From IMG/VR virus record IMGVR_UViG_3300027628_000007: 64,000 bases of DNA; one strand, written 5' to 3'. The DNA is from a virus (Duplodnaviria > Heunggongvirae > Uroviricota > Caudoviricetes). The notes under the pieces are model-generated. The model searched no databases. It was given only the letters and a program-made list of their open reading frames with translations, and was not told the DNA's origin. Every line of letters begins with the position of its first letter. The first letter of the stretch is position 1. The position numbers were made by a program, and so were the translations under genes. Below, one piece after another: positions 4,116-58,653 of this stretch.

Positions 4116-4171
4116 TTAATCACTCCTATGTATGTATTATATCATTATTTTTTGTTTTTGTGCAAGCATTT

Positions 4172-5449: not shown

Positions 5450-5502
5450 TTAACAACACTCCTTAATGTTTTTTTATTTGTTTGTTTCAACCTTATGAAT
5501 TT

Positions 5503-5531
5503 ATTATATCATTATCTTTTGCTCTTGTCTA
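5503..5531 (-). promoter_or_regulatory. sigmaA-type promoter, family copy (TAGACA-17-TGaTATAAT), upstream of RNA ligase gene
   Basis: Plus-strand text attata-tcattatcttttgctcttg-tctaca; minus strand reads -35/-10 with conserved spacer. Confidence 0.6.
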
Positions 5532-5750
5532 CAAAAAAAGAAAAGTTTTTTATTTTTCTTTTTTATTTTCTCTATCTTACGAAAATTAACCAACATAGAC
5601 CGATGGAAAATAGAGCTATTAGTGCACCGTATCCTAAGAAACATATTATAAAAAACATTACTTTAAGATACTCTTGCCACAACTCACGCATGACAATCAC
5701 CTCCCATATTTTTCTTTATTGTAGCAAAAATTGGATTAGAAGTCAATACT

Positions 5751-6620
5751 CTAATCCAATAATTTTGATAAATCTACGACACCATATCCTAAGTTATAGC
5801 TGTGGTCATGATTACCCATATTCATAATTTTCTCTTTTACTTGTGCAGGTGTTAACTCAATACCTTGATTACGGTTGTGAGAAATAAGCAATGCGATTGC
5901 TCCTGCTACTAATGGTGAAGCCATAGATGTTCCAGACATCCTAGCATACTTGCCATCTTTAAATGTGCTTAATACATCAATTGCAGGTGCAGAGATATCT
6001 ACTTGTGGTGCTCTATTAGAGAATGGACAATGATTTAAATCTTTGTCAACTCCACCTACTGCAAATACTTCATCCATAAATGCAGGATAATCCACTTCTG
6101 GCAATCCCATATTTCCTACTGCACATACAATCTTAATTCCTTGTGCATGAGCTTCTTCTAATCGTTCTTGAAGTCGTACTGGAAGACCTCCACGAACGCC
6201 TAGACTCATACATAATACATCTACTTTGAAGTTGATAGCTAATGTAATTCCATCCATAACACTCGCCATACTGCCTTCGCCTTTTTCGTCTAATACTTTT
6301 GCAATATATAAATCAACATTAGGTGCAACGCCTGTCTTCGCACCTGCAATTAATCCTGCAACATGAGTTCCATGACCATACTCATCTGTGATATCATTTG
6401 TTTTTTCAAACATATTTATACCGTACTTGACTTTTCCTTTTAGGTCTGGATGGTTCTCATCCATTCCAGTATCAATCACCATAACTTTAACGCCTTCGCC
6501 TTTTGTTTTCTTCCAAGCTTCTTTGACGTTAATAGCTTTTAAACTCCAATCAAGCCCTTTGGGTAATTTATCCAATACTTCAATATTCTTAGTTTCATTT
6601 TGTGTCATCATATGTTGCAC
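5751..6620 (-). CDS. subtilisin-like serine protease (peptidase S8)
   Basis: Catalytic triad contexts VIDTGMD (Asp), HGTHVAG (His), GTSMASP (Ser). Confidence 0.9.
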   Translation of the reverse strand: MQHMMTQNETKNIEVLDKLPKGLDWSLKAINVKEAWKKTKGEGVKVMVIDTGMDENHPDLKGKVKYGINMFEKTNDITDEYGHGTHVAGLIAGAKTGVAPNVDLYIAKVLDEKGEGSMASVMDGITLAINFKVDVLCMSLGVRGGLPVRLQERLEEAHAQGIKIVCAVGNMGLPEVDYPAFMDEVFAVGGVDKDLNHCPFSNRAPQVDISAPAIDVLSTFKDGKYARMSGTSMASPLVAGAIALLISHNRNQGIELTPAQVKEKIMNMGNHDHSYNLGYGVVDLSKLLD

Positions 6621-6900: not shown

Positions 6901-7523
6901 TCCTTATCAGTATCTAGCGGTGCTAGTAATTTAAATTCACTCTTTAAACTATTGTAAATTGGTTGGAAGAATTTCTTAATTGTATCCCAATCCTTCATAG
7001 CCATAACACTTCCTAAGAAACGGTTTGCACATTCGTAATCTACGATTCTACCATGCTTTGCAATTTGAATCCCAAACATCAAGATTCTGATTGAATGAAA
7101 CATGCTCTTTTTGCCGATATAATCTTCACCAATCGCTAATTTCTTTTTACATTTAACAAAACTGTTAGAAGAAATCCCAGAGATATTTCTACGTAATGCT
7201 TCTAGATTTGGTTCAAAATGCTCACGATATTTACTATCTTCTTTTTGGAAGATACATTCTAGGTAGCTAATATGTTGCTCTTTAATCTTCTTAATAAACA
7301 GTGCTTCGCTTACTACGTGAATAGAGACATCATCACGCTCAAACGTATAATCAAGTTCTAGGTCATGACTGTCTGCAACAGCCATGAAATCATAATCTGA
7401 ATCCGCATTGTCAGTTCCGTAGACCCTAGAGCCATACGGATAGATTGCCAATAGTTTTTCATTAATGTTTCTTTTTGTTTCCCACATGTTATCACTCCTA
7501 TAGTTGACCCATTGCGTAGTCAT
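6897..7523 (-). CDS. minimal nucleotidyltransferase (Pol-beta superfamily, MNT-like)
   Basis: hGS...G...SDYDF motif (IYPYGSRVYGTDNADSDYDFMAV). Confidence 0.65.
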   Translation of the reverse strand: MTTQWVNYRSDNMWETKRNINEKLLAIYPYGSRVYGTDNADSDYDFMAVADSHDLELDYTFERDDVSIHVVSEALFIKKIKEQHISYLECIFQKEDSKYREHFEPNLEALRRNISGISSNSFVKCKKKLAIGEDYIGKKSMFHSIRILMFGIQIAKHGRIVDYECANRFLGSVMAMKDWDTIKKFFQPIYNSLKSEFKLLAPLDTDKE

Positions 7524-8217
7524 AATGTTCTTTTAATTTAATGAAGTCTTTCTCATTTCCTCCCATATCTGGGTGATGCTTTTTAGCTAATTTTCTGTAA
7601 GCTTTTTTGACATCATCTTTCGTTGCCCCTCTAGACAATCCTAAGAATTTCAATGCAGAATCAAGTCGAGATGTGTAAGATTGCTGTTGAGTTTGACTGT
7701 TGAATCCACGACTATATTGTTGCTTTTGTCGTCCAAAGAAGTCTCTATAAATTCTTTCCCATTCTTCATTCGTTCTTCTATCCTGTTCCTCATACATCTT
7801 TCTTCTTCTCTCTTCCTGTCGTCTTCTTTCTTCTGCTTTCATTCTTTCCCATTCTCTTTGTATTCTCTCACGCTCTGCACGCTGTTTTCTCATGTATTCC
7901 TCATGCTCACGCTGTTTAGCTTCACGTTCTGCCTGCCTACGCTTTTCTTCCTGTTCCCATTGTATCTCTCGACCCTCTCTGCCTACGTTATGTATAATTG
8001 TTAGGTTGCCTAGAATAATAGGTATCCAGATAAACATAGAAAGCGTAAAGATAGCGGATGATACAAAGAATATAGAGAAGATATGTAAGATAAAGAATAT
8101 CATAGGTGTAAACGTTGCAATGAAACTCTCATTAGCATCCATTGCAATATCGTATTTCTTAGCACTTCCATTATACAGATGGTAATAAAACCTAAACATC
8201 GAAAAATATTTCTTCAT
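7498..8217 (-). CDS. membrane protein with Arg/Glu-rich linker and C-terminal J domain (DnaJ-like, HPD motif)
   Basis: C-terminus KKAYRKLAKKHHPDMGGNEKDFIKLKEHYDYA; two TM helices near the N-terminus. The track start at 8247 is TTG; the ATG at 8217 with AAAGGAGTG is preferred. Confidence 0.75.
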   Translation of the reverse strand: MKKYFSMFRFYYHLYNGSAKKYDIAMDANESFIATFTPMIFFILHIFSIFFVSSAIFTLSMFIWIPIILGNLTIIHNVGREGREIQWEQEEKRRQAEREAKQREHEEYMRKQRAERERIQREWERMKAEERRRQEERRRKMYEEQDRRTNEEWERIYRDFFGRQKQQYSRGFNSQTQQQSYTSRLDSALKFLGLSRGATKDDVKKAYRKLAKKHHPDMGGNEKDFIKLKEHYDYAMGQL

Positions 8218-8246
8218 GTTATTCACTCCTTTATGTTTGTAAACCA

Positions 8247-8275
8247 ATTATATCATTATCATTTATGTTTGTCCA
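8247..8275 (-). promoter_or_regulatory. sigmaA-type promoter (TGGACA-17-TATAAT), upstream of J-domain gene
   Basis: Conserved spacer ...AAATGATAATGA TATAAT. Confidence 0.6.
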
Positions 8276-11690: not shown

Positions 11691-12251
11691 TTATTTCACC
11701 TCGTTTTGGTATAGAATCCCTGCAATAATGTTTCTTGTAAACATCTGCTTATCTCTGACATTCTTAATTACATAATCGTAGTCAACTCTGTTTTTCATTT
11801 CATCATCATATAATTCAATTCTTGCTACAGCATTCTCAATTGAGTCTCCACGAAGTAACATGTTCGCCATGCAATCTTCTTTACTCATATGTAGGAAGAT
11901 TCCTACTGCATCTGGAAACTTTTCTTTCACCTGTTTGTAGCCATCGTAATTAACAATTATGTATACGTTTTCTGCTTCACTCATACGTCTTTTAATTTCT
12001 TCTACTGAAATCCCATACAAGTGACCGTCATATTCAATGTATTCTGCAAATTCGCCACCGTCAATCCCTACTTGGAAATAATCTTTGTCAATGTAATAAT
12101 ATGTTTGACCATCAACCTCTCCATCTCTCATAGGACGTGTTGTATGAGAAACACATTCTAGTAATGCATGTTTACCAAGATAGTTTTGTACCATTTCCAT
12201 AATACTAGTTTTCCCTGTTCCGCTAGGTGCGGTAACTAAAATTAATGCCAT
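11691..12251 (-). CDS. guanylate kinase-family nucleoside monophosphate kinase
   Basis: P-loop APSGTGKTS plus the guanylate-kinase signature SHTTRPMRDGEVDGQTYYYI. Confidence 0.8.
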   Translation of the reverse strand: MALILVTAPSGTGKTSIMEMVQNYLGKHALLECVSHTTRPMRDGEVDGQTYYYIDKDYFQVGIDGGEFAEYIEYDGHLYGISVEEIKRRMSEAENVYIIVNYDGYKQVKEKFPDAVGIFLHMSKEDCMANMLLRGDSIENAVARIELYDDEMKNRVDYDYVIKNVRDKQMFTRNIIAGILYQNEVK

Positions 12252-25583: not shown

Positions 25584-26354
25584 CTATGCTACTAATTTAT
25601 TTTTAACTAATTGCATGATTAGGTTGTCGATATGTAATTTAAGCTCTTCATTTGGTTTCTGTGAGCGGTACTTATCTTTCAGATGTACGAATTGTGCATC
25701 GTGGATATGATTAACTAGACGTTCAAAGCTTTCTTGATTCCAGAAACCATATTTGATTTCATGCATAAAGAATACTTCTTCGCCTTCATATCGCAATGCT
25801 TTCTCTGGATTCTTAAATCCTAATGCTTCATACTTGATTGCAAAGTCTAACAAGCGATAAGCGTGCTGTGCTTGCTTTGTATCGAATCCAAATAGGTCTA
25901 CTAATACTTGTGTACCTTCTGTACCTTTAGGCAACAGCTTCATCTTTTGTTTAAATGTACCGCCAAGAGCATCAAATAGCTTTGGAAGGTTCATGTTAAA
26001 GATGTCATAACGTAAATCATAAAGCTCTTTTAATTCCTTGCTATCTTCAAGATACAGCTCTTTAGAGATTAAAGGCTCTAAGTAATTCAAGTTAGCCTTC
26101 CAGAACAAGTCTGGGAGCTTACGGATGTCGTGCACATCATAATCTGCATCTGCACCGATGATGCTTTCTGCAAACATCTTCTGCTTGTACAGCTCTTCAA
26201 ATGTAGGAGTTACAAATGCTTTGTAATCCTTGTCAGATGCAAGGATAATCTTGCCACTGATTTTCTTTTCACCTGTTGCTAGATTGTAATTGTTTGACCC
26301 TACTAATGCTTGTACTAATACTTCTCTTCCTAAGATTGTTTTCATGTTTTTCAT
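25584..26354 (-). CDS. hypothetical protein (256 aa)
   Basis: ORF track; own promoter copy upstream. Confidence 0.6.
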   Translation of the reverse strand: MKNMKTILGREVLVQALVGSNNYNLATGEKKISGKIILASDKDYKAFVTPTFEELYKQKMFAESIIGADADYDVHDIRKLPDLFWKANLNYLEPLISKELYLEDSKELKELYDLRYDIFNMNLPKLFDALGGTFKQKMKLLPKGTEGTQVLVDLFGFDTKQAQHAYRLLDFAIKYEALGFKNPEKALRYEGEEVFFMHEIKYGFWNQESFERLVNHIHDAQFVHLKDKYRSQKPNEELKLHIDNLIMQLVKNKLVA

Positions 26355-26923: not shown

Positions 26924-27421
26924 TTACACCTCATACTTTCTTAATAGTTTTACAATTTTGTCAAGATGTGCTTTCTTATGTACACTGTCTGCTTTCCATG
27001 CCATACCAGACTCCATAATCCAGTTTGCATCAATAGGATGCCAACGTACCCATTTGCTAAATGTTACATATGTATTTTCAGAATCCAAACCTGTGTGCTC
27101 TGCTAGTTTCATAATCTGTTCATCTGTCACAGACTCATGAAACATTACGCTGAATGATTCACCATCTTTATGACCGTAACAGCAGAATTTTGTTTTCAAT
27201 CCAATTTCGAAATTGATTACGTCTAGCATCTCAATCATTTCTGGGTCAATCTCATCATATGGAATACCATGAGCGTTGAAGCGATGACGTAACGCTTTCT
27301 CAATCGTACTCTCTTTCATATCGTGGAAGCAACCATGACAAAGATTAGCCTTATGTGCATTACTTCCTTTTGTTACCTTTTCATAAGTTTGACAATTACC
27401 GCAACCGATTTCTACTTTCAT
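26924..27421 (-). CDS. hypothetical zinc-finger protein (CGNC...CHGC)
   Basis: Two CxxC pairs near the N-terminus. Confidence 0.55.
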   Translation of the reverse strand: MKVEIGCGNCQTYEKVTKGSNAHKANLCHGCFHDMKESTIEKALRHRFNAHGIPYDEIDPEMIEMLDVINFEIGLKTKFCCYGHKDGESFSVMFHESVTDEQIMKLAEHTGLDSENTYVTFSKWVRWHPIDANWIMESGMAWKADSVHKKAHLDKIVKLLRKYEV

Positions 27422-28026
27422 TATGCTGTTTCCTCCTGTTTACGTAGTTCATCTCGTACTTCCATTAACACTTGACCTAATAGGTTCATGCCTTTCCACT
27501 TCTTAGGGTCTTCTACGTCTGGATGGTCTTTATGCATACCGATTCCCCAGATTCTATCAGAAGGGCTTGCTTCCACAAGCATCTTATTACCTGTTGCAAG
27601 AATACATTTTTTCAAGAATGGTACAGAGAATTTATCCATTAACACTTCTTTGTAGATTCTCTTACGATTCTTCTGCCAAACATCTTCCTTGAATGGAATG
27701 TCATTGCTACGACCTAATAGCTTACAGTAACTTGGTGTATCGGCTTCTAAAATATCTTTTGCAACGTCTGTCGCACCAAATAACATAGCTTTACGATACA
27801 TTACCGCCTGCTCTGACCATAAGAATCGTATGCCTTGATGCCTGAATGGTGAGAAGTTAAAGTTTGAGTACACGCTGTCACCCATCCAGAAGAAGATAAA
27901 CTTATCAGTTTCTCTTGCATTCTGTCCAAGACCTCTTTTAACTCTACCGATTTTCGCATCAGTTTCACGCTTTTGCTTCAAGAATCGTTCTTGGTCTGCT
28001 TTTGTTAATTTAGGTTTCTCTCTCAT
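27421..28026 (-). CDS. NADAR (YbiA/DUF1768) domain protein - ADP-ribose processing N-glycosidase
   Basis: Collinear match to E. coli YbiA: FFW..G..SNF...PF......F...E...M.KA.LF......IL....P...K.LGR.......W......EV...KF.....LL.TG...LVE.SP.D..WG.G. Confidence 0.8.
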   Translation of the reverse strand: MREKPKLTKADQERFLKQKRETDAKIGRVKRGLGQNARETDKFIFFWMGDSVYSNFNFSPFRHQGIRFLWSEQAVMYRKAMLFGATDVAKDILEADTPSYCKLLGRSNDIPFKEDVWQKNRKRIYKEVLMDKFSVPFLKKCILATGNKMLVEASPSDRIWGIGMHKDHPDVEDPKKWKGMNLLGQVLMEVRDELRKQEETA

Positions 28027-28027: not shown

Positions 28028-28495
28028 TTAACCTCCTAGTAATGATAATAGTCTAGTAATGTCTTTTGGTTGATGCCCATCATATTCTGGTGCAAATTCT
28101 AATTCTTTCACTTTAAATAAATCATAATCTTCTTCTCTGTAATGATATGAATACTGACCTTCTGGTGTATCGACTCCAACAATAAATGACCCATCAAACA
28201 TTGTGCCATCTGAATGTTGCCAAGACTTCCATGCTTTGTCTTTGTATGTATGACAGATTACTAAGAATAACATCATGCGATGATAATACAGTTCATCAAA
28301 AGTGTGATAGCCATCGCTAAACTCTCCAACTCTCATAACTAAATCAGCAGGAATATGATTATGTGTTCCGTCTAAAGTAACGGTTGAAACATCTTTTCTA
28401 GACCCAAAATTTTCAACATCTGTCTTAGTTATCTTATATATTGTTGGTAAATCTGATTTGAAAATAACCTTGTTGCCTGCTTTAAATTTACTCAT
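28028..28495 (-). CDS. hypothetical protein
   Basis: ORF track. Confidence 0.6.
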   Translation of the reverse strand: MSKFKAGNKVIFKSDLPTIYKITKTDVENFGSRKDVSTVTLDGTHNHIPADLVMRVGEFSDGYHTFDELYYHRMMLFLVICHTYKDKAWKSWQHSDGTMFDGSFIVGVDTPEGQYSYHYREEDYDLFKVKELEFAPEYDGHQPKDITRLLSLLGG

Positions 28496-31994: not shown

Positions 31995-32204
31995 CTATTC
32001 TTCTATTAACTTAAATTCAAATGATTCTAAATACTGCTTTACTCTATGACCTCTGACTTCACCGATGAAAACATAATCGTAATACCCTTCTTCTTCGTCA
32101 ATGATTCCATCTTCTACAAATTCAATCTCTGCACCAGTTTTAAAATAATTATCGTCAGATTCAAGTGCTATTGCTTTTGCTCCAATTTTAATATCCAGTT
32201 TCAT
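31995..32204 (-). CDS. hypothetical protein
   Basis: ORF track. Confidence 0.55.
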   Translation of the reverse strand: MKLDIKIGAKAIALESDDNYFKTGAEIEFVEDGIIDEEEGYYDYVFIGEVRGHRVKQYLESFEFKLIEE

Positions 32205-32784
32205 ATGTATCTTCCTCCTTTGGAAATTTAATATTTCTTAACGTATGTGGTATAACCAACTTCTTACCAATCTGTTCAAGTCTTATGTAGCCCTTCCTAG
32301 CAAGCGACTCTAGCATTCTCATTACTGTATCTCTATTCTTTATCTTGATACCATCTGCTAGAGCATCAATGTCAGTAGTAGTTTTCCAATAACCAACATC
32401 TGAATGCATTACTATGAAAGCGTATAGCTTGTATTCCTTCTTAGTCATTGTATCATTATCTTTTACTTTTGTCCACAACTCTTCTAAAATAAAATTGAAA
32501 TTATCACTTCTTTTTTCCATCACGTTATACCTCGGACTATATTTATTTATGAGATAGAGTTCATAGACTTTCATTTCGCTCTCACTTTGCAACTCCATGT
32601 ATTCTACGACTGCACACTCATCATAGCACTCTCTAGGAAGGTGACCTTCCTTAGAGAAGTGCTCTTGCTCTAGTCTTCGTTTCAGATTGTTAGTTCTGCC
32701 TATGTATATAATATCATTATGTTTATCTAGAAATCTGTAGACATAGAAACTATTCTTCGTCAATCTCTTCCAACAACTTCTCAA
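32188..32784 (-). CDS. GIY-YIG homing endonuclease-like protein with C-terminal winged-helix
   Basis: FYVYRFLDKHNDIIYIGRTNNLKRRLEQH (GIY...YIG...R...E/QH) and YELYLINKYSPRYN. Start approximate. Confidence 0.8.
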   Translation of the reverse strand: MRSCWKRLTKNSFYVYRFLDKHNDIIYIGRTNNLKRRLEQEHFSKEGHLPRECYDECAVVEYMELQSESEMKVYELYLINKYSPRYNVMEKRSDNFNFILEELWTKVKDNDTMTKKEYKLYAFIVMHSDVGYWKTTTDIDALADGIKIKNRDTVMRMLESLARKGYIRLEQIGKKLVIPHTLRNIKFPKEEDTYETGY

Positions 32785-34409: not shown

Positions 34410-34868
34410 TTAGAGTTTGTATAATGTTACTTCATAACCGTCAAAAGCTTTGTCTATTAACTTATAAACCTCTGTCCAATCCGCTCCACCTCTATCACTA
34501 CCAATTAGGTATGGAAGTGCAACAGATAAGGCATATGATTCTGCAAAATCTCTTAAATCCTTCATAGCTTTATAGAGAGCCATTGTCTTTGTGTATTGAT
34601 TCCCATCTCCACCATATGTAAGCTGACCAAAAAGATTTGCAACCACCTTGCCATCCATCAGTACAAGATGACATTTCCCTAACAATTCTGTCCTAGAGTT
34701 CTCTTTCACAAAGTTTGTCACATATTCAACATAAGTTGTATAGGCTTCTGGGAAGGATTGGCGTATGCATTTCGCAACGCCACTTCCCATAACACCCATC
34801 GCATTCACTTGATGACCAATGACATCCTCACTGGCTTCCATTAAATCTCCATTAACAATCTTAATCAC
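34410..34868 (-). CDS. macrodomain protein, DarG/TARG1-like (ADP-ribosyl hydrolase)
   Basis: N-terminal IVNGDLMEASEDVIGHQVNAMGVMGSGVAKCIRQSFP follows the GD...aH.vN..G..G.GvA pattern of DarG/TARG1-type macrodomains. Confidence 0.7.
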   Translation of the reverse strand: MIKIVNGDLMEASEDVIGHQVNAMGVMGSGVAKCIRQSFPEAYTTYVEYVTNFVKENSRTELLGKCHLVLMDGKVVANLFGQLTYGGDGNQYTKTMALYKAMKDLRDFAESYALSVALPYLIGSDRGGADWTEVYKLIDKAFDGYEVTLYKL

Positions 34869-35617: not shown

Positions 35618-35902
35618 CTAGATATCGAAAACCTTGTCTGTAGAGCTTTCTTTTTGCTTTGGCACTAATTTGAAATCATACTCATTCTTACTATAGTGAG
35701 TCCAATTAAGTCTATTAAACGACTTTACTAAACCTACAAGCGATGAATACGTGCCTGTTGCACGCACAGAGCCATCACTGATTTTTTTAGTTGTATATTT
35801 ACCCTCAAAGCACGCAATAAGAAAAGCAACACCGTTAATAACTACAACATCACCACATTCAATATCAAAAGCATTATCTTCAACTTCGAAAATTACGTTC
35901 AT
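35618..35902 (-). CDS. hypothetical protein
   Basis: ORF track. Confidence 0.6.
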   Translation of the reverse strand: MNVIFEVEDNAFDIECGDVVVINGVAFLIACFEGKYTTKKISDGSVRATGTYSSLVGLVKSFNRLNWTHYSKNEYDFKLVPKQKESSTDKVFDI

Positions 35903-36111
35903 TTAACATCATCCTTTTCTTTCTCTTTTTTCTCTCTTCTACGATTCTTCCAACCTTCAAACTTATGGAAGCTCTTAGGATGGATTGTCTCCCAGAATAA
36001 CCCAACTAATCCAAGGGCTACTCGTAATAATGCTAGAATAATAATAACTGCAATCATCCATCCTACTAGTTTTGCAAGCATCCACAATGTTGTTAAGACT
36101 GCTGTTGTCAT
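35899..36111 (-). CDS. small membrane protein with basic C-terminus
   Basis: TM helices then KNRRREKKEKEKDDVK. Confidence 0.55.
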   Translation of the reverse strand: MTTAVLTTLWMLAKLVGWMIAVIIILALLRVALGLVGLFWETIHPKSFHKFEGWKNRRREKKEKEKDDVK

Positions 36112-36872
36112 TTAAGTGTTCCTCCTTTTGTGATTATCTTAATGTTTTCCATCACTTCTTCCATATCAATTTGATAATCAAACATACCAATTACTTCTTG
36201 GGCTGTTCGAATACCATGTAAGTATTCCTTAATCTCTGCAATCTGTCTCTTATGCTCTGCAACAAATTCATGATGCTGTTTAATCTTAATCAAGTGTGGC
36301 ATAATAGTTGTCTTGGCAGAATGAAAGAATCGTGCATGTTCTGGATATCTTTTACGACATGCTTTGAAGAATGGCAGGAAGAATTTCTCTGTTTCCAATG
36401 CCTGTCTCAATTCTTTCTCTGGCGTTGCATCTTTTAATGTGCCAAAATTATTCTTTCTATCTACTGTTTTAATTTTAGCCATTCGGACATTTTGCAGTAT
36501 GATGTCTAAGTACGCCTGCATATTCTCTTCTTTCTTGTAGTCGATGTTTGGCAACTTTGTTACTCCCATTACTGTATCAGCAACCTCTTGACCAAACAGA
36601 CTTTTAACAGCTTCATAGTTGATGTCTGGGACATCTTCGATTGCATCATGCAGTATACATGCGGTCAAAGTTACTTCATCGGTTTCACCATGATTAATTA
36701 AATCCTGTGTTGCATCTACCAAGTGATAGTAATAGTGACGACCATCATGTCGTTTATATCCGTTATCAGCGTTCATAACTGATATCATCCAATTAAGAGC
36801 TTTTAACGCTTCTTTACAACCCATCTCTGCTAAATCCATTTGCAACTGTACTACACGACTTTCTTTCGCCAT
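36108..36872 (-). CDS. RelA/SpoT-family HD hydrolase (small alarmone hydrolase, Mesh1-like)
   Basis: HD-domain motifs RHDGRHYYYHL..., ILHDAIEDV, and FGQEVADTVMGVTKL, as in the SpoT (p)ppGpp hydrolase domain. No synthetase domain. Confidence 0.8.
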   Translation of the reverse strand: MAKESRVVQLQMDLAEMGCKEALKALNWMISVMNADNGYKRHDGRHYYYHLVDATQDLINHGETDEVTLTACILHDAIEDVPDINYEAVKSLFGQEVADTVMGVTKLPNIDYKKEENMQAYLDIILQNVRMAKIKTVDRKNNFGTLKDATPEKELRQALETEKFFLPFFKACRKRYPEHARFFHSAKTTIMPHLIKIKQHHEFVAEHKRQIAEIKEYLHGIRTAQEVIGMFDYQIDMEEVMENIKIITKGGTLK

Positions 36873-36873: not shown

Positions 36874-37260
36874 CTATCGCTCTCCTACAATCTTAATCTT
36901 ATAGCCTAATTCTTTTTCGATTTCTTGCACCGTCATCTCTTTTAATACTAAGTCTCGGATTATAAGATGGTCTTTATGATATGTAAGAATCTCTTGTGTA
37001 AGCATAGTGTATGGTAACACCTTTCTTATTCCTACTTCTCTAGGGTCTTTTCCGTAAATACCACATATGCCATATCCTAGCTTACTATTCTTATAAGCTG
37101 TAACTACCCCAATGTTGCCATTTCCAAGTGTAGAAAATTCTGGATTAAATAAAACGATATCTCCAACATGATAATCACCATTCGCATTAAACGCAAACTC
37201 TCCAATTACACCTGCACTCTCAAATACCGATTTATTATAAATCTCTTTAACTTCTGTCAT
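36874..37260 (-). CDS. hypothetical protein
   Basis: ORF track. Confidence 0.6.
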   Translation of the reverse strand: MTEVKEIYNKSVFESAGVIGEFAFNANGDYHVGDIVLFNPEFSTLGNGNIGVVTAYKNSKLGYGICGIYGKDPREVGIRKVLPYTMLTQEILTYHKDHLIIRDLVLKEMTVQEIEKELGYKIKIVGER

Positions 37261-37292: not shown

Positions 37293-37321
37293 AATATATC
37301 ATTATCTTTATCGCCTGTCAA
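37293..37321 (-). promoter_or_regulatory. sigmaA-type promoter (TTGACA-17-TATATT); -35 embedded in CTGTCAACAG
   Basis: aatata tcattatctttatcgcc tgtcaa; follows terminator 37327..37370. Confidence 0.6.
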
Positions 37322-37381: not shown

Positions 37382-39064
37382 CTATGACTTCATATAATCC
37401 TCAATCATCACCTGCGGAGTGCAGATTTTCTGCTTTAATCCAAAGTTATAAAACTCATTCATAGACAACACGCCTACTACGTCAATCGTGTCAAAATGCC
37501 CTAATTCAGATGCATAATGCTCATCGACACGAAACTTGATTAACTCCATTTCGTCATAGGTTTTGATTTTAACTGTTTCCATTGTTTTACCAATACATTG
37601 TGGCTCTTCCACTGTAACGCCTGTTACTTTTACAATAATCTTATAGAATCCATTACCAGTTAATAGATTGAATCGTTCAATTGGTTTGATATAATCCCCA
37701 ATTTCATCAACAGGGATTTCTAAATCATAGATTACTGTTTGACCTTTTTCGTCAAGTTCTGGCAGGCATCTTTCAATGTATGTATTTAGATTGTCTAGAT
37801 ACTCTTCATTGATTATAAATCCTCCTGCACCTTCATGACCAAGTGCTTCAATTTCGCCATCGAAATCTTGCAGGAATGATTTGAATTTAAGACCGTTGTA
37901 GCTACGGAAGCTACCGCTTGCCACACCTTTATGTAGACGACCAACAAGTACAGGACGTTTAAATTTCTCTGATAACTGTTGGGCTATGATACCGTTGAAG
38001 CCTTTAGATGATTTGTCATCTAAGACAACTAAAACTTTTTGGTCTAAATTCACTCGTTTTGAATAAGCTTCTACTAATCCCTTTTGAATTTCTTTACGCT
38101 TATCATTAAGCTTGCTCATTTGAAGTCGTAGCTTCTTACACACTGTATCATCATCAGATAATAATATGTCTATAGCAAGCTTAATGTTGTTCATTCTCGC
38201 TGTACCATTTAGGATTGGTGCAATAGTGAATCCAATAGAGTTACAGTCAAGCTTGAATAAATCAGCCTTGCCACCCTTTAAGATACGTACTAGACCAGTA
38301 TTTTTCATATTTCGTAGACCATGCATAATTAGATATCTATTTTCTAAAACATCTACACGCATGATATCCGCATACATTCCTACAGCTACTAAATCAATGT
38401 AATCAAATGGGTCTACCTGTCCTAATGTATCTTCCATTACTTGCATCACTTTAAATACTACGCCTGCACCACTTAAAAACTTATTTGGATATAGGCAACC
38501 TTCTTGTTGAGGGTTGACCATAAGTACGTATGGGTTTTCTCTTTCGATGCCATGATGGTCTAAAATGATAATCTCTTTACCTAACTCTTCTGAAATGTAT
38601 CGACATGCATCTGTATCGTTAGAAGATGAGTCAATAAGGATTAAAAGGTCACAAGCTTTAATCTTTTCAAGATTGTCTTTATTTCTCTCTAAACGTGTTT
38701 CCTCATCTACGCCTTCAACCTTAATCATTTCAGCGATACCATGACCGTCATTACGCTCACCATAGATGAAGTCTACTTTATCAGTATAATTTTTAAGATA
38801 TCGAATCTTAGTGGAAGTTGCAGTCAAACCATCTGCATCTGGGTCATATGATACAAGGATATTTTCACCAGAAGCAATTGCACGAATGATTCTATTACTA
38901 GCATCTTCAATATTTTTCATAAGATATGGGTCATGCAGTTCATCAGCAGTAGGACTTAAAAAACTGTCAACGTCTTTAATTCCTCTGATTTTTGCAATCA
39001 TATCAATGATGTCATCAGTCTTTCTTGGTGCTACCTTCGGCTTTCGTTGAATCCATTTCTTCAT
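37382..39064 (-). CDS. DHH-DHHA1 phosphoesterase (RecJ-like exonuclease / nanoRNase family)
   Basis: Motif I YDPDADGLTA, motif III ILDHHGIE, DHHA1 GHEGAGGF. Confidence 0.75.
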   Translation of the reverse strand: MKKWIQRKPKVAPRKTDDIIDMIAKIRGIKDVDSFLSPTADELHDPYLMKNIEDASNRIIRAIASGENILVSYDPDADGLTATSTKIRYLKNYTDKVDFIYGERNDGHGIAEMIKVEGVDEETRLERNKDNLEKIKACDLLILIDSSSNDTDACRYISEELGKEIIILDHHGIERENPYVLMVNPQQEGCLYPNKFLSGAGVVFKVMQVMEDTLGQVDPFDYIDLVAVGMYADIMRVDVLENRYLIMHGLRNMKNTGLVRILKGGKADLFKLDCNSIGFTIAPILNGTARMNNIKLAIDILLSDDDTVCKKLRLQMSKLNDKRKEIQKGLVEAYSKRVNLDQKVLVVLDDKSSKGFNGIIAQQLSEKFKRPVLVGRLHKGVASGSFRSYNGLKFKSFLQDFDGEIEALGHEGAGGFIINEEYLDNLNTYIERCLPELDEKGQTVIYDLEIPVDEIGDYIKPIERFNLLTGNGFYKIIVKVTGVTVEEPQCIGKTMETVKIKTYDEMELIKFRVDEHYASELGHFDTIDVVGVLSMNEFYNFGLKQKICTPQVMIEDYMKS

Positions 39065-39416
39065 TAATTACTTTCTCCCCTTCATCTTCCAGATGCTTTG
39101 ATTCCTCTGCGATTTGAAGGTTGATTGCTCCCATTTCTTCGTATCCGTCTGCAATCTGCTTTAACTTCACAACCTCACGAAATGCATCTAAATAATTCAA
39201 TTTTGCTTGCTGTACTGTCAAGATGTCTAAATCCTCTGGACTCCACATCTTATTAACGAATGCTGTTACTTCATCCATTTCTGGCTCTGAAATACCTACG
39301 CTGTCTAAAACGAATGCCAACTCTGGAATCTTTCCGTTGATTCCAAGAATCATCATAGATGAAACCATTGTGTAAACGTTGTCTAATAATTTTTTATTGA
39401 ATGTACCTTTTTCCAT
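39015..39416 (-). CDS. hypothetical protein
   Basis: ORF track. Confidence 0.6.
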   Translation of the reverse strand: MEKGTFNKKLLDNVYTMVSSMMILGINGKIPELAFVLDSVGISEPEMDEVTAFVNKMWSPEDLDILTVQQAKLNYLDAFREVVKLKQIADGYEEMGAINLQIAEESKHLEDEGEKVINEEMDSTKAEGSTKKD

Positions 39417-40393: not shown

Positions 40394-41497
40394 TTATACC
40401 ATGTTTTTTTCGTTTTTTTCTAACATTTTTTTCAGCTCATCTTTGGTGTATGTATAATCATTGATTAATTGAGTCCAAGTATCGAATCCTTCATCAATTG
40501 GAGAGTTTTTGTCATCTAGCAAATCGTCTTTGTCATATATTGCAGTGACCGTTCTTCCCTCAAATAACTCCATATTCTTTACTATTTCGTCAATTGGTAT
40601 ACCCTTATCATAACATAGGACAATCTCAATATCAAGCCCTAATTGTTTCACAGCTCTAACTTGTTCATCAGAAATATCAGATGCACCAATCGCTAGTGTG
40701 TTGAATAATCCATTACTAAATGCTTTCATGCAGGACTTTTCAGCTTCATATATATAAACCTTCTTATCCATTAGGATGTAAGGGTGGGCGTAATGAAAAT
40801 TAAACCACTCTAGACGATTCTGATAGCGATATAGATATAGATACTTCTTATCATCATCCTCATCTTTCATGATTCGACCTTTAACTCCTACGAGTTGACC
40901 AAATCTATTTCTCATAGGAACTGTTACACGCTTTGATTCTAAGTCAAATCCAATACCATACATAATCTGGGTGTGATACGAAATCCCTTCGTCAATCCAA
41001 GGTTTATATGGTAATGCTTTGCCATAGTAATAAAAATCATCAAGGATAGATTCATCCAGAATCGGATTAGGCTTTACCTCTTTCCTACGTCTATGACCTT
41101 TAATTAACTCCTTTAACGGTGCTAAGTAATCGGTCTTTGGAAGATATCCTTTTTTATTTTTAAGATACTCATTCCAACCCAGAGTCTCACATATGAATTG
41201 TTTTGCATTGCTCAAATCACTCTTCAACTCTTCTTCTCCACGTTTATTGTGAAGGATGTATGACACAAGATAATAGATATCTCCACTAAACTTCTTGTTT
41301 CGGATACTGGAAGACAAGGACTCTTGCAACTTCACTTGAACGCTTCGCCTATTGTTACTATAGAATCGTTCTGGAAGTTGGGCAGTGACACGTGCACCAC
41401 CCTCAATCCTTATATGTTCGCATTCCAGAGCTTCCAAGATATCACACACTTTATCCTCTTCTAAAATTCTAATTTTGATATCTTGCAATTCAGACAT
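40394..41497 (-). CDS. Toprim-domain protein, putative DNA primase
   Basis: Toprim-like YIYEAEKSCMKAF...CYDKG; immediately downstream of the DnaB-like helicase. Confidence 0.5.
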   Translation of the reverse strand: MSELQDIKIRILEEDKVCDILEALECEHIRIEGGARVTAQLPERFYSNNRRSVQVKLQESLSSSIRNKKFSGDIYYLVSYILHNKRGEEELKSDLSNAKQFICETLGWNEYLKNKKGYLPKTDYLAPLKELIKGHRRRKEVKPNPILDESILDDFYYYGKALPYKPWIDEGISYHTQIMYGIGFDLESKRVTVPMRNRFGQLVGVKGRIMKDEDDDKKYLYLYRYQNRLEWFNFHYAHPYILMDKKVYIYEAEKSCMKAFSNGLFNTLAIGASDISDEQVRAVKQLGLDIEIVLCYDKGIPIDEIVKNMELFEGRTVTAIYDKDDLLDDKNSPIDEGFDTWTQLINDYTYTKDELKKMLEKNEKNMV

Positions 41498-41507: not shown

Positions 41508-43040
41508 CTATCTCTTCGAGTTATCATTCGCTACAAATGTCCAACCAATTTCCTTAAATGTATTACTTTGGAAATATGGTTCTATGATTAAAACTGGCAG
41601 TCCTGTATCGTTTGATTGACCGAAACGGTTTTTAGGTGTAAACAGCAAGTAATACTGTTTATCTGGGTCTAACTGAAACCAATCTTTATCATATGAGCCA
41701 TCTGGCAACTTCTTCAATCTGTAGCATTGTAATGCTTTGTTTCCACCTTTATACTCATCGCTCCAAGCTTTTCTAAACATCATAACAACAGATGCTTCGT
41801 TCTTAGATGCTTTACCTTCACCGATTGCTTCATAGTCTAAGAAACGGTTTCTTACTGCACTATCAGCTAACTGGAATGTAACCCATGTTCTAAGGTTTAA
41901 GCCACCTGCATTCTTACGAGTAAGGCGGTAGATTACCTTCATATCCTCTACGAATGTCTGCCAACGTTGTTCGAATTTAGATTCATCAGATACCTTATGT
42001 GTATCAATCACTAAGTTTATGTATCCACGATTTGCCCAGAAACGTACAATCTTTTCAAGGTCTTTGATTACATATTTTTCCATAAAGATGACTTTGATTA
42101 ATCCGTCATTCTCATCCATAAGCTCATTCATACGTTTCATAGCTTTACGGATTTTCTCTTTATCCTCTTCACGAAGTTTACCATTGACCATTCGTTTACG
42201 GTCAAGGTGTTCATTGTACTCATGCCATAAAAGTGTTAAGATGATTTTTTGTCGGAATGTCTGTGCATCTTCCTCATTCAGCACTACGATTGCTTTCTCT
42301 TTATTCTCAATACAGCTCATAACAATCTTCTCTGCTGTGATAGATGACTTACCAGTACCACCAAAACCACCAAACATATTTACGTGACCACGTGCCACAC
42401 CTTGCGTAATGCTATTAAGAAGCTTACTCTTATAGAATGGTAGCATCTCTGCTGACTCTTCTTCTAGCTTTCTGATAAACTCTTCTGGGTCTATGTATAA
42501 GTTCTCGGCTTCATATCGGTTAACGTTATTAAGACGGATTACATTCATCTTGTCATCCCAATACGCTCCAAGCTGTTCACTTGTCATTTTCTCAAAATCA
42601 TATTTACCCTTCTTGATTAAAACTTTGTTACCAAAGAGTAAATATAACTGTCTAATGACATAGTTTTTCTTGACAGTCTCATAGTAGTATTCAACGTTGT
42701 CTGGGTTGTCTTTTACGATATCTACCGCATCCTCAATCGTATCCATTCCACCAAACTCATCAAACTCATCTATCAAGTTGTATTCTTTTATTTTTGTAGC
42801 AACTGTGATTCTATCGAATGTTCGAATAGATTCTTTATACATCTTTCGACCTAATTCAAAATAGAATCCCCATACGCTATGTACAAACTCATCTTGTGAA
42901 ACTGTATCACTATATTCTGCGAAGTTATTAAATGGGTCTGCCCATAGAAGCCCAACAAAGTAGGCTTCATTAATTTGAGCGTTCTTATTAATCTTCTTCA
43001 TTTCTTGCATAACCAATTCTTTAGTATTATCTTGTGCCAT
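41508..43040 (-). CDS. DnaB-family replicative DNA helicase
   Basis: Walker A GGFGGTGKSS; RecA-like core with DnaB-type N-terminal domain; 510 aa. Confidence 0.85.
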   Translation of the reverse strand: MAQDNTKELVMQEMKKINKNAQINEAYFVGLLWADPFNNFAEYSDTVSQDEFVHSVWGFYFELGRKMYKESIRTFDRITVATKIKEYNLIDEFDEFGGMDTIEDAVDIVKDNPDNVEYYYETVKKNYVIRQLYLLFGNKVLIKKGKYDFEKMTSEQLGAYWDDKMNVIRLNNVNRYEAENLYIDPEEFIRKLEEESAEMLPFYKSKLLNSITQGVARGHVNMFGGFGGTGKSSITAEKIVMSCIENKEKAIVVLNEEDAQTFRQKIILTLLWHEYNEHLDRKRMVNGKLREEDKEKIRKAMKRMNELMDENDGLIKVIFMEKYVIKDLEKIVRFWANRGYINLVIDTHKVSDESKFEQRWQTFVEDMKVIYRLTRKNAGGLNLRTWVTFQLADSAVRNRFLDYEAIGEGKASKNEASVVMMFRKAWSDEYKGGNKALQCYRLKKLPDGSYDKDWFQLDPDKQYYLLFTPKNRFGQSNDTGLPVLIIEPYFQSNTFKEIGWTFVANDNSKR

Positions 43041-56363: not shown

Positions 56364-56392
56364 AATATACCATTATCTTTTCTCTATGTCAA
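56364..56392 (-). promoter_or_regulatory. sigmaA-type promoter (TTGACA-17-TATATT) at end of nadR
   Basis: Family spacer. Confidence 0.55.
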
Positions 56393-57412
56393 CAAGTTAT
56401 CGACATAATTTATTGCTTTTGTAATTCTTTCGTTGTAATTGCCTTTAATCGTTATGTATTGGACACCCATGTATCTTAACATATACTTTAAATCATCATT
56501 GTTCTGCTCACGCACATGTTGCTCACCGAATGTCCTAGTGCCATCGTCAACCCATTTTACATCTGGCTCTAGGAAAATCCATAGGTCATACTTTTGATTG
56601 TTTGCAATACGTGTTAGAAGTGCATCTCGCTCATTTAAATATGCTTTTAAATAGTATTGCGTAACAATCGCTTCTGTGTCAACAAAGAGCACTTTGTTAG
56701 CATTCTTTAAAGCATTAAATTCATCTACCTTATGTTGGTATGCAATGAGCTGATAATCTTCTGCCATTGTAATGTCTTTACATCCACCTAATTCCTCATA
56801 GAATGTGCGACCATATTCTTCTACGTAATTAGTATTATACAATGTTGCTAGATTTTTGACAAGTGTTGATTTGCCACAAGATTCTGTTCCTACAATAACT
56901 ACTTTTTTAACATAATATCGTCTTACTACTTCTGGTAGAAGCTCCCAATTTTTATAGACACCTTCTGTACGAAGCTTTGTAGCGGATATTGTATACTTTT
57001 CACGATTCGCATCGACTACGACATGTTCTGCATCTGGGTATAACACATTGAAAAACTCTGTGTAAGCATGTTCGGAAGAGAATACGTGAGTGATAGGTTC
57101 ACCCACAGCTTTCTTAATCCCTTCCGCACCTTGCTTCCAACTCTCAATCTTGCCTGTATTCTCTTCGTATACAGCGTGTACATGTACATGGGGCATATCC
57201 TTTGTAATTTCCGTCCACCATCTTACACGTTGTTTATGGTCAACATGTGGAAGGAAACTATCTTTACTAAGCACGTTCTTCTCATAATTCTCATCATATG
57301 AAACTATTACATGTAGCTCATCAACCATTGTTGATGCCATTGTCATTGCAAACACATGACCCATATGTATTGGATAAAACTTTCCACCTAAAAATCCTAC
57401 TGTTTTTGACAT
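56384..57412 (-). CDS. nadR: NadR-like bifunctional NMN adenylyltransferase / ribosylnicotinamide kinase
   Basis: N-terminal GGKFYPIHMGHV (HxGH nucleotidyltransferase, near-identical to the NadR NMNAT motif GKFYPLHTGH); C-terminal Walker A GTESCGKSTL (RNK domain). Confidence 0.85.
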   Translation of the reverse strand: MSKTVGFLGGKFYPIHMGHVFAMTMASTMVDELHVIVSYDENYEKNVLSKDSFLPHVDHKQRVRWWTEITKDMPHVHVHAVYEENTGKIESWKQGAEGIKKAVGEPITHVFSSEHAYTEFFNVLYPDAEHVVVDANREKYTISATKLRTEGVYKNWELLPEVVRRYYVKKVVIVGTESCGKSTLVKNLATLYNTNYVEEYGRTFYEELGGCKDITMAEDYQLIAYQHKVDEFNALKNANKVLFVDTEAIVTQYYLKAYLNERDALLTRIANNQKYDLWIFLEPDVKWVDDGTRTFGEQHVREQNNDDLKYMLRYMGVQYITIKGNYNERITKAINYVDNLLT

Positions 57413-57912: not shown

Positions 57913-58653
57913 TTACGCCACCTCATTTTGTTCTTTCGCATTTTTCGACCATTTGATGTAACCATAGATACTGTTGCATAAGTACGCACACCACATAACT
58001 AATACTGTAACATTTCCTCCATCATGCATGAAAGCGTTAAACCATAGAATGATAGTTAAAGTGTTTACTGCAATCCATAACAACCATTGTTCTGCATATC
58101 GTTTAAGCATTAAAAGTTGAGCTGTAATTGATAATGTTACTGCGAATCCATCAATACCTGCTTGCTTACTGCCAATCATATGTAAGAATACACCGTACAA
58201 GATTCCAACCGTTAAAACTGTTAATGCTACGTATAACCAACCTTTTTTTGTTAACTTCTTAGCTTTTACTACTGTATCATTTTCTGTTACTGACTTATTC
58301 TTGCTCCAAACATAGAATCCAATAAATTGCATTGGGAAGTATAAGAAAGCATTTAGCATAAACTCACCATATAGCTGTGCACTGTAAGCTATGTAAGCGT
58401 ATAACGCTGTGTTGATTGCCCCAAAGAAGTAGTTTCCTATTTTTCCTTTGGCTACGAGAACTACGCACAACATACCAGTTAGAGAAGATGCTAGTCCGAT
58501 TAATGTATCATCGAATGCAAAGTACATATAGATAATAAGTGCTGTGAATGATGTTAACCATGTTAATTCGAATGCTGACCAACCTTTTAATAGTGTTTTC
58601 ATAATAATTTCCACCTTTACGTTATTTTTTAAAAAACATGAATATAATTTCAA
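57913..58653 (-). CDS. pnuC: PnuC nicotinamide riboside transporter
   Basis: About 245 aa with 7-8 TM helices and Trp-rich motifs (YFPMQFIGFYVWSKN) typical of PnuC; same operon as nadR. Confidence 0.75.
   Translation of the reverse strand: MKLYSCFLKNNVKVEIIMKTLLKGWSAFELTWLTSFTALIIYMYFAFDDTLIGLASSLTGMLCVVLVAKGKIGNYFFGAINTALYAYIAYSAQLYGEFMLNAFLYFPMQFIGFYVWSKNKSVTENDTVVKAKKLTKKGWLYVALTVLTVGILYGVFLHMIGSKQAGIDGFAVTLSITAQLLMLKRYAEQWLLWIAVNTLTIILWFNAFMHDGGNVTVLVMWCAYLCNSIYGYIKWSKNAKEQNEVA

Follow-up and report, generated by a model that had tools for sequence, protein, structure and literature searches.

Known substrates of small alarmone hydrolases (SAHs) are (pp)pGpp, (pp)pApp and 3′-pyrophosphorylated tRNA (tRNA-3′-PP) (PMC9765508; bioRxiv 10.1101/2021.04.30.441581). 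Jimmy et al. 2020 described 11 SAH subfamilies, found that the SAHs of the Salmonella phages PVP-SE1 and SSU5 neutralized all five of the toxic small alarmone synthetases (toxSAS) tested, and already proposed that phage SAHs act against the stringent response or against toxSAS (PMC7229694). The SSU5 enzyme PaSpo removes the modification that toxSAS place on tRNA (PMC11559606). Phage SAHs are therefore known and have been tested before, and the Bacillus-phage SAH analysed in the present study is another member of that kind.

PaSpo of SSU5 (SSU5_099) and PbcSpo of PVP-SE1 are likewise phage-borne, HD-only hydrolases of the RelA/SpoT-homologue (RSH) type without a partner synthetase, and they have the core motifs R..G..Y..H, LHDxxED, TK/TN and KxxDxxxN in common with the Bacillus-phage SAH. 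Alignment of the SAH family profile with PaSpo using hhalign gave a probability of 97% (E 7e-11) over 111 columns. The Bacillus-phage protein itself showed 32% identity to PaSpo over 68 residues only, and PVP-SE1 and SSU5 were both missing from its tblastn matches at E<=1e-5; for these reasons it was filed under neither PaSpo nor PbcSpo. Its helical extension at the C-terminus is also longer (254 compared with 213 aa for the Salmonella-phage SAH), and the hosts, unlike those of the Salmonella-phage SAHs, are Gram-positive spore-formers. A further relative, ATfaRel of C. marina (PbcSpo), the type IV antitoxin of FaRel, belongs to the same enzyme class and presumably uses the same product-erasing chemistry. 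However, ATfaRel and its toxSAS are encoded together in a conserved operon, whereas the Bacillus-phage SAH has no accompanying synthetase.

A stand-alone hydrolase gene in a Tsamsa-like Bacillus phage

The gene was found in a 64,000-nucleotide stretch of viral DNA (hereafter the window), which has ~81% nucleotide identity to the Bacillus phages vB_BanS-Thrax3 and Kirov and comes from a Tsamsa-like temperate siphovirus of the Bacillus cereus group. The features of the locus are as follows.

36108..36872, minus strand: SAH gene, 254 aa (ORF; Pfam HD_4; phrog_15275, E 5.6e-57; PDB matches; AF2 model)
36369..36773, minus strand: catalytic HD_4 core, residues 34–168, with R41, H50, H75-D76, E79-D80, T105-K106, K135, D138, R139 and N142 (Pfam and 35-sequence alignment)
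36189..36344, minus strand: long C-terminal helix, residues 177–228 (DSSP of the AF2 model)
36874..37260, minus strand: 128-aa ORF upstream of the SAH gene, its stop 1 nt from the SAH start
35899..36111, minus strand: 70-aa predicted membrane protein downstream of the SAH gene, its start overlapping the SAH stop (ATGA)
37293..37321, minus strand: sigma-A-type promoter-like site, TTGACA-17-TATATT with an extended -10 TG (11/12 match), in the intergenic gap between RecJ and the 128-aa ORF

The first-pass annotation had placed an ORF at 36108–36872, and exactly this frame was recovered on the minus strand, running from an ATG start to a TGA stop; the motifs it had named were located at residues 41–51 (RHDGRHYYYHL), 73–81 (ILHDAIEDV) and 93–107 (FGQEVADTVMGVTKL). 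Pfam HD_4 (PF13328) matched residues 34–168 with a score of 49.9 bits, the cut-off being 27.2 (E 3.8e-13), a similarity far above what chance would give, and neither the RelA_SpoT synthetase domain (PF04607) nor TGS/ACT regulatory domains were matched in the protein by Pfam. The NCBIfam spoT_relA models matched over their first ~145–170 of ~690–700 positions, with 67.9 bits compared with a cut-off of 499. When the protein was compared with PDB sequences, the N-terminal hydrolase domains of Rel/SpoT ranked first (E 5e-17 to 1e-8), with the SAHs and Mesh1 (7p1y, Mesh1 3nqw, 4yf1 and 7qoc) coming next.

The active site was analysed further in an alignment of 35 homologues. R41, H50, H75, D76, E79, D80, K106, K135, D138 and N142 were invariant at identities down to 33%, and the core columns from R41 to N142, including T105 and R139, were invariant or at least 90% conserved. 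The metal-binding HD residues, the loss of which was looked for, were all retained (H50, H75, D76 and D138). In the alignment with B. subtilis Rel (8acu), R41, H50, H75-D76, E79-D80, D138 and N142 corresponded to R44, H53, H77-D78, E81-D82, D144 and N148, and the catalytic residues of long RSH Rel/SpoT enzymes were kept position by position. Hogg et al. in 2004 reportedly assigned these Rel residues their roles, namely a substrate-binding arginine, metal ligands of the pattern His...His-Asp...Asp, a Glu-Asp pair and an asparagine. The surroundings of the first metal histidine are unusual, being YYYHL in the phage protein compared with Y-I/F-x-HP in Rel.

The AF2 model (pLDDT 93.9, pTM 0.87) was all-helical, with no β-sheet. 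All 37 Foldseek matches in the PDB at E<=1e-3 were RSH hydrolase domains or SAHs, among them SpoT 7qpr, Rel 6s2u, SAH 7p1y, RelH 7qoc, Mesh1 3nqw and PaSAH 6yvc. The HD domains of long RSHs (B. subtilis Rel 6yxa/8acu, S. aureus Rel 7oiw, RelSeq 1vj7 and SpoT 7qpr) gave the best matches both by sequence (E 5e-17 to 2e-12) and in Foldseek. The single-domain helical HD fold is common to the solved SAHs and Mesh1, that is T. denticola SAH (7p1y), C. glutamicum RelH (7qoc/7qod), P. aeruginosa SAH (6yvc) and Mesh1 (3nqw, 3nr1 and 5vxa), for which the TM scores normalized to the target were 0.66–0.74 (0.74 for 7p1y) with an rmsd of about 3–5 Å; over the SAH and Mesh1 matches in Foldseek they spanned 0.57–0.74. 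Their sequence similarity was weaker than that of the long RSHs (E 3.6e-10 to 4e-3), and PaSAH gave no match in the PDB sequence search. Compared with these structures, the phage protein has ~55–75 more C-terminal residues. The long C-terminal helix is kept family-wide from its start up to approximately residue 200 (PFFK..YFHSAKTTIxPHL), whereas beyond this point, including the last helix (residues 237–248), both sequence and length vary in the alignment.

These results confirmed that the product is a stand-alone, single-domain hydrolase of the RelA/SpoT/Mesh1 type. The assignment to SpoT/Mesh1-like HD hydrolases made in the first-pass annotation is borne out by the domain match, the invariant catalytic residues, the fold and the phage origin, and the proposed lack of a synthetase domain held up on three counts: PF04607 was unmatched, the spoT_relA models matched in their N-terminal part only, and the model contained no β-sheet. 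The protein very probably strips the 3′-pyrophosphate from alarm nucleotides such as (p)ppGpp, and is predicted to be an Mn2+-dependent nucleotide 3′-pyrophosphohydrolase of the RSH superfamily; its catalytic activity, substrate range, expression timing and benefit to the phage are what we infer. Rel and SpoT carry a synthetase and a TGS/ACT-type regulatory C-terminal region, and since the phage protein lacks both, neither the ribosome nor a synthetase-domain switch can regulate it reciprocally. The identity to long RSHs of ~30% indicates that it is not a recently captured fragment of a host rel gene.

The homologue family and the setting of the gene

Homologues formed 116 clusters at 90% identity, all of them HD_4-only (PF13328) and 211–297 aa long, and many were located on phage-sized contigs of 140–172 kb; 62 representatives were obtained at E<=1e-30. 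Judged by their sequences, they constitute a genuine family under purifying selection. The gene was near-universal in Tsamsa-like phages by tblastn, with coverage of 80–100% among the relatives. No mention of it was found in the papers on Thrax, Kirov and Izhevsk (the Tsamsa-like ‘Tyrovirus’ literature). Domain fusions were considered as a clue to function and proved uninformative: relatives of 476–537 aa have the HD domain at the C-terminus behind ~300 N-terminal residues that matched nothing in Pfam, further long relatives consist of HD_4 duplicated in tandem, and a synthetase domain was found in neither group.

The GC content of the gene, 36.7%, is in line with that of the window, 35.3%. 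RecJ is encoded 0.5 kb away, and primase and DnaB helicase 3.5–6 kb away; a guanylate kinase (11691–12251) and a thymidylate-kinase-like protein are also phage-encoded. The genes around SAH are tightly coupled and have strong Shine–Dalgarno sequences. Neither neighbour matched a Pfam or PHROG family. Homologues of the upstream 128-aa ORF are confined to Tsamsa-like phages (45–48% identity in Thrax3 and PBC2, and 31% in the more divergent relative L010), and the downstream 70-aa ORF has ~40 hydrophobic N-terminal residues and a basic tail. The sigma-A-like site is followed by the Shine–Dalgarno sequence AAGGAGG and is the probable start of a 128-aa ORF/SAH/70-aa ORF transcription unit. A consensus scan across the region returned 33 promoter-like sites against 33.0 expected by chance, so that support for this site is limited to its quality and placement.

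In phage PBC2 the SAH gene is absent and an HNH endonuclease occupies its exact slot, with both flanking ORFs kept and the 70-aa ORF 92% identical. SAH is an accessory, replaceable gene. Since it is dispensable in at least this one relative, general suppression of the stringent response is not essential for this type of phage. An ORF of 130–150 aa precedes SAH in most loci; a conserved module of upstream ORF plus SAH was nevertheless rejected, because homology of the ORF extends among close Tsamsa-like phages only and PBC2 keeps it without SAH.

Proposed role and competing explanations

The explanation that accounts best for the data, and one that we regard as reasonably likely, is that SAH is an active RSH 3′-pyrophosphohydrolase removing host (p)ppGpp for the benefit of the phage. 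Host sigma-A RNA polymerase would transcribe the gene alongside the phage replication genes, and the enzyme, lacking the regulatory domains of host Rel, would act unregulated and turn the (p)ppGpp and pGpp made by host Rel, RelP and RelQ back into GTP, GDP and GMP. Guanylate kinase, HprT, DnaG primase and the GTPases of translation are direct targets of inhibition by (p)ppGpp in Firmicutes, where it also lowers GTP and in this way drives cells towards stationary phase and sporulation. Early removal of (p)ppGpp may keep the host in a relaxed state, in which GTP synthesis, replication and translation go on for the phage. By analogy with the known promiscuity of SAHs, (pp)pApp and the 3′-pyrophosphorylated tRNA made by toxSAS may be erased as well. 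Both of the proposed roles, blocking of the stringent response and countering of toxSAS, fit the accessory status of the gene, its host-type promoter, the absent synthetase and the nearby anti-defence genes, and sequence is unable to separate the two. If the enzyme is active, a temperate phage of Bacillus cereus/anthracis directly controls the central stress signal of its host, and the same activity is a ready antidote to toxSAS abortive-infection systems. GTP supply, primase activity, translation and the onset of sporulation are all under the control of this alarmone signal in Firmicutes.

A serious but less probable rival explanation is dedicated counter-defence, in which SAH was selected to reverse the products of host or prophage toxSAS of the CapRel, PhRel2, FaRel2, FaRel or MuF-Apk2 type. 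The tRNA 3′-CCA end would be de-pyrophosphorylated and/or (pp)pApp degraded, so that abortive infection fails, and the turnover of bulk (p)ppGpp would be a side activity. The neutralization of five toxSAS by the PVP-SE1 and SSU5 enzymes (PMC7229694) and the clearing of the tRNA modification by PaSpo (PMC11559606), whose catalytic core is common to the Bacillus-phage protein, are consistent with this, as is the occurrence of PhRel2 toxSAS in Firmicutes and Bacillus phages (PMC7229694). A replaceable accessory cassette is typical of anti-defence genes, and known eraser or anti-defence families were detected within 10 kb of SAH in the window and in four of the six divergent relatives sampled. Macro was found near SAH in the window, in L007 (450 nt away) and in L010; NADAR in the window and, adjoining SAH, in L002; Gad2 in L010; and Apyc1 together with PnuC/NadR-like genes in L009. 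The phage also carries a Pnkp-like kinase-HD protein and an RNA ligase, a tRNA-repair pair, which suggests that tRNA-directed defences matter for it. However, such neighbours may just reflect the position of SAH in the extensive accessory/early region of a phage of 165 kb, and no papers were found when the literature was searched for toxSAS together with Bacillus cereus. The near-universal presence of SAH in Tsamsa-like phages suits a general role in physiology no less well than the countering of one sporadic defence system.

The family phrog_15275 combines an HD core closest to the hydrolase domains of long RSHs with a long C-terminal helix. We tentatively suggest that it represents a distinct SAH lineage of Bacillaceae phages within an eraser toolkit (Macro, NADAR, Pnkp/RNA ligase and NAD salvage), the selected substrate of which may be what an anti-phage toxSAS of Firmicutes produces (3′-pyrophosphorylated tRNA or (pp)pApp) rather than bulk (p)ppGpp. 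If this holds, it would be the first natural anti-toxSAS counter-defence in a Gram-positive phage–host pair. Tsamsa-like phages, together with the naturally SAH-less PBC2, offer a tractable Gram-positive system for telling the two published phage-SAH roles apart.

We consider it improbable that SAH is an NADP(H) 2′-phosphatase that converts NADPH into NADH and, with the phage NAD-salvage genes, tops up NAD(H) against NAD-depleting defences. Metazoan Mesh1 and the Xanthomonas enzyme XccSAH do dephosphorylate NADPH, but the efficiency of XccSAH on NADPH is ~1000-fold below that on alarmones (PMC9765508), and the phage protein matched Mesh1 (E 8e-7 to 4e-3) less closely than long-RSH domains (E 5e-17). 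In L009, genes for PnuC, a metallophosphatase and a NadR-like NMNAT/kinase come directly after SAH; the window also encodes PnuC (57913–58653) and a NadR-like protein (56384–57412), but these lie ~20 kb from SAH, and adjacency was seen in only one of the seven loci.

Even lower in probability, and largely refuted, is the proposal that SAH is the type IV antitoxin of a phage-borne toxSAS module which guards the lysogen or phage, as in C. marina ATfaRel. SAH antitoxins of such a kind exist (PMC7229694), Tsamsa-like phages are temperate (PMC9703825), and the two small ORFs that flank SAH are closely linked to it. However, these 128-aa and 70-aa neighbours matched neither RelA_SpoT nor any other family, a synthetase domain would not fit into either of them, and their retention in PBC2 without SAH would be lethal were either of them a toxin neutralized by SAH. 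An adjacent toxic synthetase, by which a toxSAS–SAH type IV module is recognized, was seen neither in the window nor at the six divergent loci, in which no synthetase was found within 8–10 kb of SAH. RelA_SpoT was absent from the best 25 of the 39 Pfam families matched by 28 further large ORFs of the window (reaching E 3.8e-6). The sole nearby nucleotidyltransferase, the ORF at 25584–26354 (named ‘nucleotidyltransferase’ in Thrax3), was rejected as a hidden synthetase since it matched PF10127/phrog_388 and is RlaP-like, not RelA_SpoT.

A bifunctional (p)ppGpp synthase/hydrolase or GTP pyrophosphokinase, which is suggested by nothing but the GenBank product names of homologues (‘bifunctional synthase/hydrolase’ and ‘GTP pyrophosphokinase’ in Kirov, Izhevsk, Thrax1/3, pW2, FADO and others), was ruled out by domain content, as the synthetase domain was unmatched in both Pfam and NCBIfam and the 254 residues are all-helical without the β-sheet of the synthetase fold. 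These names are wrong because SAH has no synthetase domain, and a widespread mis-annotation is thereby corrected: the homologues are unable to synthesize (p)ppGpp, and phrog_15275, labelled ‘unknown function’ by PHROGs, gains a predicted function.

Domain content and predicted fold

The gene for the stand-alone small alarmone hydrolase (SAH) lies exactly where the first-pass annotation had placed it:

36108..36872 (-), SAH gene, ATG start, 254 aa

The three motifs quoted there were found at residues 41-51, 73-81 and 93-107. Pfam HD_4 (PF13328) matched residues 34-168 with 49.9 bits (E 3.8e-13; gathering cut-off 27.2 bits), and the protein covered just the first ~145-170 positions of the NCBIfam models for long RelA/SpoT homologues (RSHs; spoT_relA and PRK11092), scoring far under their cut-offs. 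Among solved structures, the top sequence matches were the hydrolase halves of Rel/SpoT (E 5e-17 to 1e-8), with stand-alone SAHs and Mesh1 ranking after them. The PHROGs family is phrog_15275 (E 5.6e-57), labelled 'unknown function'.

Homologues were gathered as 116 clusters, all HD_4-only and 211-297 aa long, and 35 of them (87% to 33% identity) were aligned. R41, Y47, H50, H75, D76, E79, D80, K106, K135, D138 and N142 were invariant in this alignment. HMMER alignment with B. subtilis Rel (8acu) gave the counterparts R44, H53, H77-D78, E81-D82, D144 and N148, which we take, from the work of Hogg and colleagues in 2004 and later Rel/Mesh1 structures, to be the arginine that binds the substrate, the residues coordinating Mn2+ and the Glu-Asp/Asn set responsible for catalysis. 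A confident AlphaFold2 model (pLDDT 93.9, pTM 0.87), based on the 35-sequence alignment, was all helical, with a long C-terminal helix (residues 177-228) conserved to approximately residue 200 and a variable tail beyond. Foldseek analysis against the PDB returned, at E<=1e-3, RSH hydrolase domains and SAHs and nothing else, including SpoT 7qpr, T. thermophilus Rel 6s2u, SAH 7p1y (TM 0.74, target-normalised), RelH 7qoc, Mesh1 3nqw and P. aeruginosa SAH 6yvc; the (p)ppApp hydrolase 7smg came next (E 4e-3).

The model contained no beta-sheet and the protein gave no RelA_SpoT match, thus excluding a synthetase function. Taken together, the HD_4 domain, active-site residues, fold and lack of RelA_SpoT confirm the earlier identification as a SpoT/Mesh1-type hydrolase without synthetase. 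The GenBank names of homologues, 'SpoT-like bifunctional (p)ppGpp synthase/hydrolase' and 'GTP pyrophosphokinase', conflict with this domain content, and on the same evidence we rejected the 'bifunctional synthase' annotation.

Phage carriers and family breadth

In nucleotide sequence the region shares ~81% identity with Bacillus phages vB_BanS-Thrax3 and Kirov, which are of the Tsamsa-like ('Tyrovirus') type, temperate siphoviruses of ~165 kb with B. cereus-group hosts (PMC9703825). By tblastn, the protein was found in nearly all Tsamsa-like phages, with homologues at ~55% identity in the B. subtilis-group relatives FADO and PJN02 and at 38% in phage G. Our literature search found no paper discussing the gene in Tsamsa-like phages. 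When 1.84 billion representative proteins were searched exhaustively with a profile, 62 scored at E<=1e-30, below which scores graded smoothly into other ~200-aa SAHs and the ~700-aa long RSHs (~100 bits); the family is therefore a single branch within a wide radiation. In BFVD, comparable folds occur in many further phages and in some giant viruses. Among the proteins retrieved, P0141, P0142, P0146-P0148, P0152, P0164 and P0170 (476-537 aa) carry the SAH-type HD domain C-terminally, behind ~300 N-terminal residues without a Pfam match, and P0125, P0155, P0168, P0171 and P0175 are tandem HD_4 duplications.

Locus anatomy and the PBC2 replacement

The surrounding genes, with several small ORFs between primase and RecJ and others before the macro protein, all lie on the same strand, in an order identical in Thrax3:

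41508-43040 (-), DnaB-like helicase
40394-41497 (-), DnaG-like primase
37382-39064 (-), RecJ-like exonuclease
37321-37293 (-), near-consensus sigma-A promoter-like site (TTGACA-17-TATATT, extended -10 TG) in the gap between RecJ and the 128-aa ORF
36874-37260 (-), 128-aa ORF upstream of SAH
35899-36111 (-), 70-aa membrane-type ORF downstream of SAH
34410-34868 (-), macro-domain protein (Pfam Macro E 1.5e-4; phrog_335 E 1e-39)

The promoter-like site, with an AAGGAGG Shine-Dalgarno after it, was identified by consensus matching only, and the number of such matches across the region equals chance. SAH has an AGGAG Shine-Dalgarno of its own, begins 1 nt past the stop of the 128-aa ORF and is joined to the 70-aa ORF by an ATGA overlap. 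Its GC content (36.7%) matches that of the window (35.3%), thus giving no sign of recent import. A 133-aa ORF (39015-39416 (-), phrog_35990, unknown function) overlaps the recJ start by 50 nt at its 3' end; its Thrax3 homologue is named 'antitoxin', a label for which we found no basis. Within the accessory gene block, 32188-32784 (-) encodes a GIY-YIG endonuclease that also has a helix-turn-helix domain and is probably of the homing type.

A partner synthetase was sought around the gene. The 128-aa ORF, with homologues among close relatives only, and the 70-aa ORF matched no family, and both are too short for a synthetase; the nucleotidyltransferase closest to SAH, at 25584-26354 (-), is of the RlaP-like kind. 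RelA_SpoT was not among the 25 families listed when 28 more large ORFs of the window were scanned together against Pfam, and the contigs of six divergent family members showed no synthetase within 8-10 kb of the SAH homologue. In Bacillus phage PBC2, the genes flanking the SAH slot are conserved (48% and 92% identity) and the slot itself (L004 3714-4454, equivalent to window 36108-36872) is filled by an unrelated 246-aa HNH endonuclease. This is a clean cassette replacement, probably brought about by mobile endonuclease genes, and it makes SAH an accessory cassette that can be replaced. Since the flanking ORFs persist without it, they are not toxins dependent on SAH; with no partner synthetase found in these scans, the idea of an antitoxin to the phage's own toxin was rejected. 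PBC2 has a second homing endonuclease between the 128-aa homologue and RecJ.

Predicted activity and its possible selective benefit

The best-supported mechanism is a predicted unregulated Mn2+-dependent 3'-pyrophosphohydrolase, which would be expressed from the host-type (sigma-A) promoter and, in infected cells, would clear (p)ppGpp together with related species carrying a 3'-pyrophosphate. The leading reading is that it would benefit the phage by suppressing the host stringent/GTP-control response. According to Kriel et al. (2012), Liu et al. (2015) and Wang et al. (2007), (p)ppGpp in Firmicutes works chiefly through inhibition of Gmk and HprT, which lowers GTP, and of DnaG primase; Gmk is a direct target. 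RecJ, primase and helicase accompany SAH in Tsamsa-like phages, and the window also encodes a thymidylate-kinase-like protein, ribonucleotide reductase and gyrase (the last two by position and Thrax3 homology) and a guanylate kinase:

11691-12251 (-), guanylate kinase (Pfam Guanylate_kin E 8e-27)

A hydrolase beside replication genes, together with a phage Gmk, fits a strategy of keeping GTP and replication going, and the pairing of this Gmk with a (p)ppGpp hydrolase suggests that the two act in concert to sustain GTP synthesis.

Reversal of immunity based on toxic small alarmone synthetases (toxSASs) is a strong rival. Jimmy et al. (2020) described 11 SAH subfamilies, with SAHs in many phages and prophages, proposed that incoming hydrolase-encoding phages could bypass alarmone-mediated defence, and showed that the Salmonella phage SAHs of PVP-SE1 (PbcSpo) and SSU5 (PaSpo) neutralise CapRel, PhRel2, FaRel2, PhRel and FaRel (PMC7229694). 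SAHs strip the 3'-pyrophosphate put on tRNA by toxSAS (PMC11559606; bioRxiv 10.1101/2021.04.30.441581). PaSpo (L006:35670-36311) has the same catalytic core as the present family (hhalign probability 97%, E 7e-11), but its pairwise identity with SAH is just 32% over 68 residues. Stringent-response suppression and toxSAS reversal could both be true, and sequence alone does not decide between them. SAH promiscuity can reach NADPH (PMC9765508), and a role as NADPH phosphatase is of low probability. Other phages already provide known and tested examples of this kind of system; the novelty here is limited to a Bacillaceae-phage SAH lineage that databases mis-annotate and that has a natural null among its relatives (PBC2).

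Matches to known eraser or anti-defence families lie <=10 kb from SAH in the window and in four of the six relatives sampled, a proximity that may be no more than an effect of lying where a large phage keeps many accessory genes. Removal of ADP-ribose is an activity of both Macro and NADAR, which are therefore candidate counters to DarT-type ADP-ribosylating toxins. Besides the window, Macro lies 450 nt from the SAH homologue in L007 and 3 kb from it in L010, and NADAR adjoins it in L002 (all divergent relatives). Homologues of Gad2 (anti-Gabija; L010 14973-15671) and Apyc1 (anti-Pycsar; L009 19566-20294) were also found near SAH. Further genes of the window are:

27421-28026 (-), NADAR-domain protein (E 3e-39)
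28028-28495 (-), WDGH-domain protein adjoining the NADAR gene
57913-58653 (-), PnuC nicotinamide-riboside/NMN transporter (E 2.8e-46)
56384-57412 (-), NadR-like protein (cytidylyltransferase-like + AAA_28 kinase)
3117-4115 (-), kinase (AAA_33/KTI12) fused to an HD phosphatase, Pnkp-like
4172-5449 (-), adjacent RNA ligase (PHA02142 OB + RNA_ligase)

PnuC and the NadR-like protein make up a set for NAD+ salvage that could compensate for defences depleting NAD; in L009 the same pair comes directly after the SAH homologue. The kinase-HD protein and RNA ligase look like a tRNA-repair pair of the Pnkp/Rnl type, the kind T4 employs to counter anticodon nucleases. An ATP-dependent DNA ligase and the RlaP-like 'RNA repair pathway' nucleotidyltransferase are encoded at 843-2150 (-) and 25584-26354 (-). 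L009 also has a ubiquitin-like conjugation set (Prok-E2, JAB, ThiF/E1; 283-6553) within 10 kb of SAH. Finally, a ClpP-like protease, a subtilisin-family (S8) protease and a protein with a C-terminal DnaJ domain are encoded at 2169-2774, 5751-6620 and 7498-8247 (-), proteostasis genes that are, to our knowledge, unusual siphovirus cargo.
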